64,000 nucleotides of DNA from Gemmatales bacterium (GTDB lineage: Bacteria > Planctomycetota > Planctomycetia > Gemmatales > HRBIN36), in NCBI GenBank assembly GCA_041640595.1, contig JBEPZY010000003.1, forward strand, positions 540,342 through 604,341, read 5' to 3'. Below are positions 8,181 to 30,027 of this stretch, in pieces; position 1 is the first letter of the stretch, and the number at the start of each line of letters is the position of its first letter. The notes under the pieces were generated by a model, which saw only the letters and a list, made by a program, of their open reading frames with translations, did not search any database and was not told the origin of the DNA. The translations under genes and the position numbers were made by a program.

Positions 8181-8271
8181 GCCCGCTTCGACACCTGGTG
8201 ACCTGCCTGCATCAGGTAGCCAGCTCCAGCACTTCTCTCATGAAGTGCCCGTTTCGGCACCTGGTGACCTG
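8181..8271. repeat. Repeat-spacer-repeat unit, period 66
   Basis: GCCCGCTTCGACACCTGGTGACCTG (8181-8205) vs GCCCGTTTCGGCACCTGGTGACCTG (8247-8271); 41-bp unique middle. Confidence 0.8.
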
Positions 8272-8410
8272 GTCGCTTTTTCACGATCACGGATCGAGTC
8301 ACGTAGTTCCCCAGCCCTACCTCAAGCGTGCCACACCTGTGTTGCTGCCTCGTCGCCATCCAGCGTATTGCTGTGTTGTCGCCGTCCAGGACCGGCGGTC
8401 GAGGTTGCTC

Positions 8411-8513
8411 CGTTCCCCAGCCATACCTTGGTCGTCCGCGACAAGCAGTCCAGCGCCGAGAGCAAGCAGGAGTCCAGCTAGATCGTTGGCCAGCCATACC
8501 TCGATCGGCCGCG
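8411..8513. repeat. Degenerate repeat-spacer-repeat unit, period 73
   Basis: CGTTCCCCAGCCATACCTTGGTCGTCCGCG (8411-8440) vs CGTTGGCCAGCCATACCTCGATCGGCCGCG (8484-8513); partial third copy near 8306. Confidence 0.65.
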
Positions 8514-8547
8514 TTTGTGCCCTCTGCCAGAATCGAAGCCGCGACCA

Positions 8548-8663
8548 TCTCCCATTCGTTTAGCGAAACGCATCTCCAACGCACAGGTGGCGGAACCGTG
8601 CGCGGCTATTATCCCGGACGAACTCTCCCATTCTTTCAGGGAAACGCATCTCCAACGCACAGG
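8548..8663. repeat. Repeat-spacer-repeat unit, 40+36, period 76
   Basis: TCTCCCATTC(GTTTAGC/TTTCAGG)GAAACGCATCTCCAACGCACAGG at 8548-8587 and 8624-8663, 3 mismatches. Confidence 0.9.
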
Positions 8664-8873
8664 GCTTCGCCAGCCGTGATCCGACATCATTGCGGAGAAA
8701 TCCTTGCGGACATCGCGGATCACTCAGGCGATGGGAACGCGCCTTCCCGACCGTTCGCCCCACGATACCCGCAGGCACGTTACGGCCCGACGATTCCGGG
8801 TGCACATCCTCGGCCAGCGACTGCCGGACGCACATCGTCGGTCGGTAATGCACGCATGCAGGTCGGCACGCGG

Positions 8874-8922
8874 AAATTTTTTTATTTTTTTTCTTGACGG
8901 CGGCTGGCGGGTCTGGTAAGAT
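8874..8922 (+). promoter_or_regulatory. Sigma70-type promoter with AT-rich UP element for the ELWxxDGT gene
   Basis: A/T tract 8874-8893, TTGACG (8894-8899)-N17-TAAGAT (8917-8922). Confidence 0.65.
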
Positions 8923-9100
8923 TGAAGCTGGCAGCGTACCACGGCTGTCATTCAACTGGCCGGGCGGGTGAGAATCGCTGGCCCGTGCAGCCATTCGCGC
9001 TCTCCTTTCCGGTTGTCCTGGCATCTGCAGCACGTTGCCACATGGCCAGTACTTTGCGGTGGTTTGTCCGTGTCAGCACACCAACAGAAAGGAGCACCCC

Positions 9101-28420: not shown

Positions 28421-29460
28421 GGCAACGACTCGCCACCGCAAACCGAACCACTACCTGTTGACCAGAATGACCAACTTCAGCTCGACAATGTCGGGGAAGA
28501 TTATGTTAGCATCTATATTGGGCCGCTGGTAGATGATGAAGCTGTGCGGTTGGTCATATGTGTTAGAGAAGACAAGCATCTATATTGAGCCGTTGGTAGA
28601 TGATGAAGGCCATGTGCTTAGCTATACGGTAACCGGTCTGCCGGACGGCATTGACGTTGTCTATGTTGAGGTTGCGGCAGATGGCAGAGAACCGGGTGCC
28701 TATCTGCAAGGTTATATCGCCTACAGTAACGTGGCCAGCAACGCCCCACCGGTGGATTTTCATGTTATCATGACCGTTACCAAAGAAGGCGATGGGAATA
28801 GTTTCCAAAGCGATAGTTTCACGTGGACGATTAGGGACACATCTAGGTTAGGGTCTATATCTGACCAAGTTTCAAGGGAGGGCGAGTTTATTTTCTGGAT
28901 ACCCCCAGTCGCCAGGACGGAAGGGGAGACTTTGGTGATCCATTATTCGGGATTGCTCTTGGGTCTGGAATACTTTGCAAACTCGGGGCTGGTGTATGGA
29001 TATGTCAGTTACGCTAACATTGCCAGCAATGGTCACGCCCGATCCTTGGAAGTCACCATTTTCGTGAACGACGGGACAGGTATGGAGAGCAAAACCTTCC
29101 AGTGGCAGGTTGAGGATACGAACAGGATTCCTGTTTTGCCGGATGTTAGTATTAGCGAAGGCGACTATATAAACGTGAAAATAAATGCTGAAGACGCGAC
29201 GGGAGCCAGCTTGACGTATGCCGCGGATAACCTGCCCCGGGGTCTAAGAATAGACTCGGCGACAGGACGCATTACTGGAACGGTTTCTTATCGCAACGTC
29301 GGCCCTAGAGAAGGAGTGAGGGAATTCATTATAAGCATTCGCGTTACTGATGGCGAGAGCGAGGATATGAGGACGGTCACCTGGACAGTCCAGGATAAGG
29401 ACTGGTGGTCGGCACCGCCGAACCTGACTAACTCAGAGGGCGAGGATGTGTGCTTTGAAC
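28421..29460 (+). pseudogene. Broken cassette: GND-PPQTEP linker copy followed by three putative Ig domains, frameshifted by a 67-bp insertion/duplication and decaying at about 29460
   Basis: 28390-28460 copies 22871-22915 ([10 protein letters not shown]); 'SYTVTGLPDG', 'YAADNLPRGLRIDSATGRITG'; no start codon; the downstream ORF tail runs into repeats. Confidence 0.75.
28508..28608. repeat. 34-bp duplication of coding sequence around a 33-bp insert (period 67)
   Basis: AGCATCTATATTGGGCCGCTGGTAGATGATGAAG (28508-28541) vs AGCATCTATATTGAGCCGTTGGTAGATGATGAAG (28575-28608). Confidence 0.92.
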
Positions 29461-29519
29461 TTTGTGCTCCCAGTGTTTCGGCAGGCTGGGACAACACGGT
29501 GCGTCTGTGCGCTTGCAAA

Positions 29520-29613
29520 GGCCGAGCCTTGTTTTTAGTGGTCCTAGTGATCAAAGACGTCGCTGACGCCGTCAACCGTATGCGTGGCCGAGCCTTGTCT
29601 TTAGTGCTCCTAG
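29520..29613. repeat. Repeat-spacer-repeat unit, 28+38, period 66
   Basis: GGCCGAGCCTTGTTTTTAGTGGTCCTAG vs GGCCGAGCCTTGTCTTTAGTGCTCCTAG. Confidence 0.88.
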
Positions 29614-29646
29614 CATCCCCGAAAATACAGATCATCCGGCAGGACC

Positions 29647-29754
29647 GTTATCATGCCCGCGCCTTACGTCCAGCGGAGCTTCGCTTCGGCCGTAGAAGAG
29701 GGTTTACAGATGTAATGTGTTATCATGCCCGCGCCTTAGGTCCAACAGAGCTTC
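29647..29754. repeat. Repeat-spacer-repeat unit, 36+36, period 72 (third copy at about 29921-29967)
   Basis: GTTATCATGCCCGCGCCTTACGTCCAGCGGAGCTTC vs GTTATCATGCCCGCGCCTTAGGTCCAACAGAGCTTC. Confidence 0.9.
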
Positions 29755-29786
29755 CTTCAAAGCTGGCGATAAGTCAGGTCGGCGGC

Positions 29787-29884
29787 CCTCTTCCAAAACT
29801 TGAGGAAGCACAGGTGACCAACTTTGTGCCAATTACGCCGACCGCCAGCCCAGCCTTTTCCAAAACTTGGGGAGGCACAAGTAA
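29787..29884. repeat. Repeat-spacer-repeat unit, 31+36, period 67
   Basis: CCTCTTCCAAAACTTGAGGAAGCACAGGTGA vs CCTTTTCCAAAACTTGGGGAGGCACAAGTAA. Confidence 0.8.
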
Positions 29885-30027
29885 GCCTTGCGTGTTCCAA
29901 GTGTTCGAGATAGAACGGGCCATCCGGCGTAACCGTTATCATCCCACGCCTTGCGTCCAGCGAAGTCCCGTGAAAGCCTGGGATAAGACACTTAGAGATG
30001 CGGTTGGCGTGGAAGTGCGGGGATGGT

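Follow-up and report, generated by a model that had tools for sequence, protein, structure and literature searches.

Dispersed repeat-spacer-repeat units in a Gemmatales genome are probable scars of off-target spacer integration by two resident Cas1-Cas2 integrases

Background

How does a bacterial genome come to carry many units with the geometry of a CRISPR array, each built on a repeat of its own? The question is raised by ten repeat-spacer-repeat loci in a 64,000-nucleotide stretch of the genome of a Gemmatales bacterium (G000:C3:540342-604341, where C-numbers denote contigs of genome G000). This whole stretch is referred to here as the window, and the ten loci are given in its own coordinates. 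A first-pass annotation of the window had proposed that the loci are natural ectopic integrations made by two Cas1-Cas2 integrases, or by an unknown insertase with the same ruler.

Here we report an analysis of these loci and of their counterparts in the rest of the genome, of the CRISPR systems resident in the same cell, and of uninterrupted copies of the loci in paralogous DNA and in public metagenomes. On the strength of these sequence comparisons, the ten units are very probably scars of ectopic (off-target) spacer integration by the cell's own two Cas1-Cas2 integrases. Loci with periods of 65-68 bp and of 72-76 bp are termed 66-class and 74-class, respectively.

Results

Ten loci of two period classes in the window

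A direct-repeat search of window positions 8000-30200 recovered all ten loci at the starts and periods that had been annotated, together with the two annotated tandem arrays of 74-bp and 72-bp units. An 8-base-seed scan of the window returned the same ten loci and nothing further, and it found no such locus in the 30-64 kb part. At each locus two copies of 25-40 nt, 83-94% identical to each other, flank an insert. The repeats of the ten loci are mutually different in sequence, as the annotation had stated, and no strand is assigned to any locus or array.

The 66-class scars, which have the geometry of a type I-B system, lie at 8181..8271 (copies 8181-8205 and 8247-8271; period 66, copy length 25 nt, identity 92%), 20910..21010 (copies 20910-20944 and 20976-21010; period 66, 35 nt, 83%), 21085..21180 (a 30-nt duplication around a 36-nt insert; period 66, 93%), 28508..28608 (copies 28508-28541 and 28575-28608; period 67, 34 nt, 94%), 29520..29613 (copies 29520-29547 and 29586-29613; period 66, 28 nt, 93%) and 29787..29882 (copies 29787-29815 and 29854-29882; period 67, 29 nt, 86%). 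The 74-class scars, with the geometry of a system linked to a reverse transcriptase (RT), lie at 8411..8513 (copies 8411-8440 and 8484-8513; period 73, 30 nt, 83%), 8548..8663 (copies 8548-8587 and 8624-8663, insert 36 nt; period 76, 40 nt, 93%), 13690..13798 (copies 13690-13725 and 13763-13798, insert 37 nt; period 73, 36 nt, 89%) and 29647..29754 (copies 29647-29682 and 29719-29754, insert 36 nt; period 72, 36 nt, 92%). Both tandem arrays were detected by Tandem Repeats Finder as well as by the direct-repeat search and consist of whole units, namely 4.3 copies of 74 bp at 13811/13820..14136 and 3.6 copies of 72 bp at 20538..20799.

Seven of the loci and both tandem arrays sit between predicted genes. 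Locus 28508 is placed at the 5' edge of a gene fragment (887 bp, He_PIG domain) to which a paralog on C2 is 96% identical. Behind this fragment come loci 29520, 29647 and 29787, in the tail of an open reading frame (ORF) whose single Pfam match ends at about 29390. Within the window, then, the annotated restriction of the units to intergenic or pseudogenised DNA holds.

The inserts do not resemble the DNA on either side of them. In nine of the ten loci, identity between the insert and the DNA before the first or after the second copy was 0.18-0.38, compared with 0.25 for random pairs; locus 13690, which has no exact 11-base seed, was outside this comparison. The insert at 8181, a locus outside predicted genes, is unique and only 0.20-0.22 identical to adjoining DNA. 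Head-to-tail repetition of whole units, of the type that slippage produces, is absent from the ten loci (13690 being judged by the repeat search only) and present in the two tandem arrays. Genome-wide, the mean identity of inserts to their neighbours was 0.285, against 0.254 for random DNA, and about 5% of inserts shared over 50% identity with the DNA that follows the second copy. Inserts that are merely diverged copies of neighbouring units, which the annotation had listed as an observation that would speak against its proposal, are thus not what these loci contain.

The two classes recur throughout the genome

The whole genome (4.45 Mb) was scanned for short direct repeats, and the histogram of periods was compiled before and after masking of CRISPR arrays. 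The unmasked scan gave very sharp peaks at 65-68 and 72-76, much of the signal being supplied by three true CRISPR arrays. With the arrays masked, 149 pairs at 65-68 and 230 at 72-76 were obtained with 11-base seeds, and 210 and 240, respectively, with 8-base seeds and a length of at most 50 nt. In the latter scan each remaining period held about 0-15 pairs, except for a separate repeat family at 87-94 that is described at the end of this report. When the genome was shuffled in 300-bp blocks, 0 pairs were found at every period from 40 to 130. The two narrow period classes first noticed in the window are therefore genome-wide and extend outside the arrays.

The length of the duplicated segment also separates the classes, with a mode of 29-31 nt and a median of 30 at periods 65-68 and a mode of 36-38 nt and a median of 37 at periods 72-76. 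The commonest periods among the dispersed loci, 66 and 74, are equal to those of the arrays. The 379 pairs found with 11-base seeds fall into 287 sequence families, 251 of which are singletons, so that the diversity of repeats annotated in the window extends to the genome as a whole. The conserved, shared repeat that is expected of a canonical CRISPR array is lacking in the dispersed pairs: repeats were unlike the resident CRISPR repeats in 448 of 450 pairs, and two pairs resembled one of them. One of these two is a true mini-array, at C3:328836, whose 30-nt repeat is near-canonical and whose spacer is directed against contig C15 (see below).

Each class matches one resident CRISPR system

The genome contains exactly two Cas1 and two Cas2 matches, and each Cas1-Cas2 pair adjoins one large array. 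The first array (C8:3-21080) has 317 repeats of 30 nt, spacers of 36 (154), 37 (95), 35 (36) and 38 (25) nt and a commonest period of 66. Its locus is of type I-B: Cas1b reaches 425.5 bits, the curated cut-off being 304.1, and the locus also holds Cas2, Cas4, Cas3, Cas5b and Cas7. It is adjoined by a type III-B Cmr1-6 set. The same 30-nt repeat builds a smaller array of 27 repeats at C10:65236-66999. The second large array (C1:359749-377934) has 247 repeats of 37 nt, spacers of 37 (99), 36 (81) and 38 (38) nt and a commonest period of 74, and the genes of its locus are ordered Cas2, group-II-intron-like RT, Cas1. The annotation had suggested a search for cas1/cas2 genes and for arrays of matching geometry; both exist, in two sets, with repeat plus spacer lengths of 66 (30+36) and 74 (37+37). 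Because insert length and target duplication both fit one resident system per class, two independent quantities agree for each system.

The spacers of the arrays also point to a target within the assembly. Contig C15 (9.6 kb, 1-9585), with a guanine-plus-cytosine (GC) content of 49.8% as against 55-59% for the genome, has 35 matches from 34 array spacers, many of them at 100%. The 30-nt array accounts for all but one of these matches (34 of 35) through 33 spacers, a single spacer matching twice, and 30 of the spacers lie in its cas-proximal part. Taken with the Cas1-Cas2 pair beside each large array, these matches indicate adaptation that is or was active. NGG follows 27 of the 34 C15 matches of 30-nt-array spacers, as read from the flanks, which corresponds to 5'-CCN in the sense of the CRISPR RNA. 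A PHROGs search of nine C15 ORFs gave no match, and Pfam found in the C15 ORFs only a matrixin domain and a sub-threshold match to protein-primed PolB in a 578-aa protein. C15 probably represents a small virus that infects this host, or one of its linear plasmids.

Empty sites

Paralogous DNA was sought within the genome for 295 loci, each queried with 200-bp flanks. It was present elsewhere for 155 loci; 34 had a filled paralog and 11 an empty-site paralog, four of the latter belonging to a multi-copy family and being less clean. Two clean empty sites correspond to window loci. For 28508, the paralog (C2:398300-398354) contains a single copy without insert; the gap, placed by gap-tolerant pairwise alignment where MAFFT did not place it, measures exactly 67. 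For 20910, the paralog (C2:407875-407920) is of the same make-up, one copy lacking the insert, and its gap is exactly 66. As such copies hold a single repeat and lack the insert, what was inserted is new DNA, as opposed to a diverged duplicate, and the "repeat" is host sequence that predates the insertion, such as the edge of the gene fragment at 28508. The C2 copy that is empty at 20910 does carry the insertion of 21085; hence 21085 is older, and 20910 younger, than the segmental duplication.

Empty alleles were also found in metagenomes. At least part of the stretch is contained in 20 public runs from 15 studies, most of which are labelled hot-spring metagenomes, and contigs of four runs (four studies; hot-spring or mat metagenomes) were aligned to window positions 10100-30000. 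In a contig of run X12, position 13725 directly abuts 21 letters that lie 3' of the second copy, so that the insert and second copy of 13690 are absent; the contig then jumps to 14042 and has three 74-bp units fewer in the 13811-14136 array, the copy number of which differs from strain to strain. At locus 29787, a contig of run X5 has three other letters between 29814 and 29885 and is shorter there by a net 67. A contig of run X3 returns from 20796 to 20604 and thereby has additional 72-bp units, which shows that the copy number of this array varies, and contigs of run X2 carry the filled forms, near-identical to the window. The empty-site alleles for which the annotation had called thus exist both as paralogs (20910, 28508) and in metagenomes (13690, 29787), and the inserted state is the derived one. 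Genomes of the same genus are only 75-77% identical even in a gene, and their intergenic DNA is for this reason not comparable for empty sites.

Target choice and recurrent insertion

The ends of the duplicated segments are not random. On either side, the first base is G in 52-56% of 66-class targets (n=64) and 44-46% of 74-class targets (n=57), against a background of 29%. In the 66-class, T stands at the second base in 33-41%, and A at position 12 in 47% counted from one end and 31% from the other, compared with a background of 21.5%. The canonical 30-nt repeat starts with GT and ends with AC. When whole targets were compared with the canonical repeat of their own system, taking the better of two orientations and handling random DNA identically, 66-class targets matched at 10.0 of 30 positions, compared with 8.4 in random non-coding DNA (p=1.4e-6, n=57), and 74-class targets at 12.3 of 37, compared with 10.7 (p=4.3e-6, n=55). 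There is, accordingly, a weak preference for repeat-like targets.

Two clear examples were found of a target whose paralogous copies hold different inserts at an identical position, a third copy being empty. The target of 21085 is one of them: the paralogous target at C1:321769 contains another insert, and the C2:80230-80470 copy has none. This empty copy aligns well to C1:321769; its direct alignment to window locus 21085 is low-scoring. Different inserts in paralogous copies of one target argue that insertion is recurrent and directed by sequence. Besides that of 21085, the target of C1:1188417 is a recurrent one.

Origin of the inserts

Matches to something else in the genome were found for 38 of 274 inserts, mostly to paralogous copies of the whole locus. 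Others reveal a source. The ectopic insert at C2:174386 is a spacer of the 30-nt array (C8:12372-12402; 30 of 31 aligned bases), and the repeats around it are unrelated. The insert of 21085 matches C15:2487-2516 at 28 of 30 positions; its score is 44.1 bits, and five shuffles reached no more than 28.2. Three further inserts, those of C3:643266, C2:136237 and C3:484583, each correspond to one location in the chromosome whose flanks are unrelated; the last of the three, in a 66-class scar, was copied from the cell's own 23S rRNA gene (C5:166631-166664; 33 of 34). Some inserts, therefore, were copied from elsewhere. In all three self-derived cases NGG stands on one side of the source, within the uncertainty of the boundary; as support for a protospacer-adjacent motif (PAM) this is only suggestive. 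The annotation had further proposed that the insertions record foreign DNA outside arrays. This applies to a few spacers, that of 21085 resembling the foreign contig C15; it does not apply to others, which were copied from the host's own chromosome.

The GC content of 66-class spacers (0.548) is close to that of array spacers (0.551) and below that of the flanks (0.586; p=1e-4). A comparison of spacer-end composition between arrays and scars gave no clear common signature. The inserts do not form a repeated element family such as a transposable element or miniature inverted-repeat transposable element, given that 236 of the 274 are unmatched; no search for terminal inverted repeats was made. 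A 27-base tRNA-like match in a 60-nt insert with a 15-nt repeat (C3:353317) was too weak and was not used.

Age, placement and amplification of the scars

The two copies of a scar usually differ by 1-3 bases in the 66-class and by 2-5 in the 74-class, and they are identical in 11 of 121 and 9 of 153 pairs, respectively. From the small number of identical pairs it follows that most scars are old. A total of 264 physical loci were placed relative to genes predicted with a crude model, under which 79% of the genome is coding: 206 lie outside predicted genes, 36 partly inside and 22 inside. A neighbour within 500 bp is present for 47% of scars, as against 22.5% for random non-coding placement (maximum 31% in 200 trials), and neighbouring scars mix the classes (47 mixed, 27+38 same-class). 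Clustering with mixed classes points to permissive DNA and not to integrase-specific hot spots. One spacer plus one repeat per locus adds up to 28.5 kb, or 3.1% of predicted non-coding DNA, and the scars thus do not build the long intergenic regions, a role that the annotation had overstated.

Whole-unit repeats of at least 60 nt are concentrated at the same periods: the five periods 72-76 hold 51, and 76 background periods together hold 47. This enrichment and the two-spacer units described next fit an amplification of scars by unequal recombination, from which both window arrays (74-bp and 72-bp) would have arisen. At C8:39335-39900 and C2:229093-229600, one non-CRISPR repeat alternates with two different spacers, and the resulting 148/150-bp double unit occurs at least three times. 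These mini-arrays look like the products of two successive ectopic insertions that were subsequently amplified.

Relatives

A search of 31 genomes, among them G000, gave a Cas1 match in 20, of which G000 is one. The informative relative is G002, a genome of the same genus (93% complete) with one Cas1, beside an array of 37-nt repeats. In 455,382 bases scanned, many of the contigs taken being shorter than 1 kb, G002 has four scars and one tandem array at periods 73-76, with segments of 30-37 nt; at periods 65-68 it has two His/Pro-rich coding repeats only. The class of scar follows the resident system in this one informative relative. Two genomes of the same order, one without a Cas1 match (G027) and one with two Cas1 (G022), were scanned over 400,000 bases each; the periods of their repeats were mostly multiples of three, without a peak of the 66 or 74 type. 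Among the genomes sampled, high scar density is special to G000.

The scar-free window segment 30028-39683 has genes with G002 homologs on two contigs, four of them at 67-83% amino-acid identity and a fifth at 41%. For the genes of the scar-rich 8-30 kb part, no homolog was found in the 213 kb of G002 searched.

Discussion

The first-pass annotation had named four observations that would tell against natural off-target integration: absence of genome-wide period peaks, spacers that are diverged copies of neighbouring units, lack of cas1 or of arrays with matching geometry, and lack of empty-site alleles. The opposite was found on all four counts, and its core reading, integration by two integrases, therefore stands, supported by the peaks, the matching systems and the empty sites.

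We propose the following course of events. An integrase carrying a prespacer of about 36-37 bp would attack two phosphodiester bonds on opposite strands of ordinary DNA, one repeat-length apart, the spacing being 30 bp for the type I-B Cas1b-Cas2(-Cas4) and 37 bp for the module of Cas2, group-II-intron-like RT and Cas1. Gap filling would duplicate the target on both sides of the insert and give rise to a target-spacer-target unit with a period of 66 or 74. The choice of site would be weak and guided by likeness to the repeat, mainly through G (often GT) at each attacked end. Scars would persist where insertion is harmless, that is, in non-coding and decayed DNA. Some would later gain a second spacer, and others would be amplified into whole-unit tandem arrays by unequal recombination between the copies. 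As the repeats of the scars are unlike those that the cell's own CRISPR processing would recognise, the scars presumably have no immune function.

A number of points weigh against this explanation. Cas1-Cas2 would be the agent of the insertions on the grounds of geometry and association. Apparent duplicated lengths range from 20 to 48 nt around the modes, and some window loci deviate from 30 or 37 (25, 34, 35 and 40 nt); this scatter is in part boundary error in diverged copies and may in part be a real loosening of the ruler. No other match in the genome exists for 236 of 274 inserts. The C15 site matched by the 21085 insert has no adjoining NGG, and the PAM support from self-derived inserts comprises three cases, for which we estimate a chance probability of roughly 1 in 16 once boundary slack is allowed. 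For the 74-class, spacer GC is indistinguishable from that of the flanks (p=0.41), and a search for a clean protospacer found none. Three window stretches, covering eight loci, were compared with a phage collection and gave nothing, or a chance 26-base match outside the spacers (E=0.09). The annotated check for spacer sources and a PAM thus gave a divided answer, with the C15 match, one array-spacer match and NGG in three of three self-derived cases on one side, and no credible phage match and a C15 site lacking the PAM on the other. The empty alleles in the metagenomes could be secondary losses by recombination between the two copies and not ancestral. The relatives were sampled in part, with 0.4-0.46 Mb taken from each of three genomes. 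Finally, the spread of scars over the genome is uneven, with 0 in 256 kb of C6 (255,606 bases) compared with 9-10 per 100 kb on C2-C4.

One scar lies between 400 and 900 kb of C1; predicted non-coding DNA makes up 9-19% of that part and 17% of C6. The scar-poor regions of C6 and C1 could represent a core chromosome domain, DNA of different age or origin, or an effect of binning.

The alternative that survives best is an unknown insertase, unrelated to Cas1-Cas2, that inserts segments of about 36 bp and produces target duplications of 30 and 37 bp which match CRISPR geometry by coincidence. Such an enzyme could be accommodated by the indirect link to Cas1-Cas2 in the sequence, by the scatter of duplicated lengths around the modes, and by the many inserts to which no source was assigned. 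Yet the coincidence would have to occur twice, each class matching the repeat and spacer length of one resident system; an array spacer recurs as an ectopic insert, and a second insert matches the array-targeted contig C15; the target ends resemble the ends of the repeat; and G002, in which only the 37-nt system was found, has the 74-class alone. We regard this alternative, which the annotation had left standing beside Cas1-Cas2, as very unlikely, and nothing in the data calls for it.

Tandem duplication by replication slippage, with part of each unit having since diverged, is less likely still. It would account for the presence of two whole-unit tandem arrays of the same periods among the loci and for the roughly 5% of inserts that resemble the DNA after the second copy. 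In general, however, the inserts are as unlike their neighbours as random DNA is, both in the window and genome-wide, some of them were copied from distant places, and slippage predicts neither the sharp periods nor a conserved part of 30 or 37 nt. A derivation of the units from genuine CRISPR arrays of many foreign types, left as decayed remnants or brought in horizontally, as the mini-array at C3:328836 might suggest, is hardly credible when nearly all pairs are unlike the resident repeats with which they were compared, most families are singletons, and hundreds of foreign array types would need to share two periods.

Integration by the resident Cas1-Cas2 integrases has precedents. In Escherichia coli overproducing type I-E Cas1-Cas2, non-canonical integration yields "neo-CRISPR" loci (Nivala, Shipman and Church 2018, Nat Microbiol 3:310; through 10.1101/148544, PMC7054753 and PMC6698737), and the natural evidence in that work, from two other species, is called only "circumstantial" (10.1101/148544). 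As far as those sources describe the neo-CRISPR loci, the scars resemble them in having a spacer-sized insert between duplicated, repeat-length genomic DNA, at sites that could seed new arrays; they differ in being natural and fixed, not induced, in numbering about 400 loci attributable to two integrases (type I-B with Cas4, and RT-linked), and in showing polymorphic wild alleles, amplification into tandem arrays and two-spacer units. In vitro, Pyrococcus furiosus Cas1-Cas2 carries out off-target full-site integration on plasmids, at G (then C) 30 bp apart and with a G1, T2, A12 preference (PMC6698737). The G at the first base, T at the second and excess of A at position 12 of the scar targets agree with the sites described in that source, in contrast to whose plasmid assay the products here are fixed in the chromosome and include the 37-bp ruler of a second system. 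Also known, at a distance from cas genes, are orphan arrays, mini-arrays and solitary repeat units (reviewed in PMC8616872, which cites Shmakov et al. 2020 and Faure et al. 2019), and the review describes the repeats of such mini-arrays as mostly identical or very similar to those of the host. The scars share with them the single-spacer unit away from cas genes, but 448 of 450 pairs have repeats unrelated to the resident ones. The kind of event is therefore known, as off-target Cas1-Cas2 integration in laboratory E. coli and in vitro, and its natural scale is new; a literature search, with supplements outside its scope, found no report of a genome-scale natural record of off-target integration.

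With somewhat less assurance than for the origin of the ten units, we consider it likely that the two integrases (I-B with Cas4, and RT-linked Cas1-Cas2) leave about 400 fixed, still polymorphic scars that are raw material for new tandem and CRISPR-like arrays; single-spacer units, two-spacer units and amplified arrays occur side by side in this genome, which would make it a natural series for the de novo birth of arrays and an array-independent fossil record of prespacers. With dated scars by the hundred, produced by two integrases in a single genome, the rules by which each enzyme selects its targets become directly readable; to our knowledge, the in vivo site choice of the RT-linked integrase is poorly known. 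The scars also show the genomic cost of integrase infidelity, and they provide intermediate stages through which the origin of new CRISPR arrays can be approached. In practical terms, CRISPR finders and repeat annotators may mislabel such loci.

Other features of the window and genome

The peak at periods 87-94 was considered as a third integrase class and ruled out, as it stems from a single hairpin repeat family in many copies. This family (core like GAGCGGCGGGCGTCAGCCCGCCGTGG) accounts for 231 pairs genome-wide at a spacing of 87-94 bp, including window positions 13533-13652, and has partly conserved segments of about 60 nt between its copies; a few of its short pairs also land at period 66. 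It looks like an element of the repetitive extragenic palindrome/bacterial interspersed mosaic element (REP/BIME) type or an unclassified array. Metagenome depth rises 10-70 fold across window positions 13420-14083, and many contigs end at 13659/13660.

Window positions 9035-13369 hold a gene for a surface-protein-like product of 1444 aa (Big_5, FG-GAP and Filamin domains) with coding tandem repeats of 144 and 345 bp, and many copy-number variants of these repeats occur among metagenome contigs. The ORF at 23525-25045, amid He_PIG and leucine-rich repeat (LRR) proteins, has a C-terminal CDI-toxin restriction-endonuclease-like domain (PF21111, E=2.2e-14) and may mark a polymorphic-toxin locus. 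In run X2, one contig connects 22147 with 28575 and omits 6.4 kb that include this ORF.

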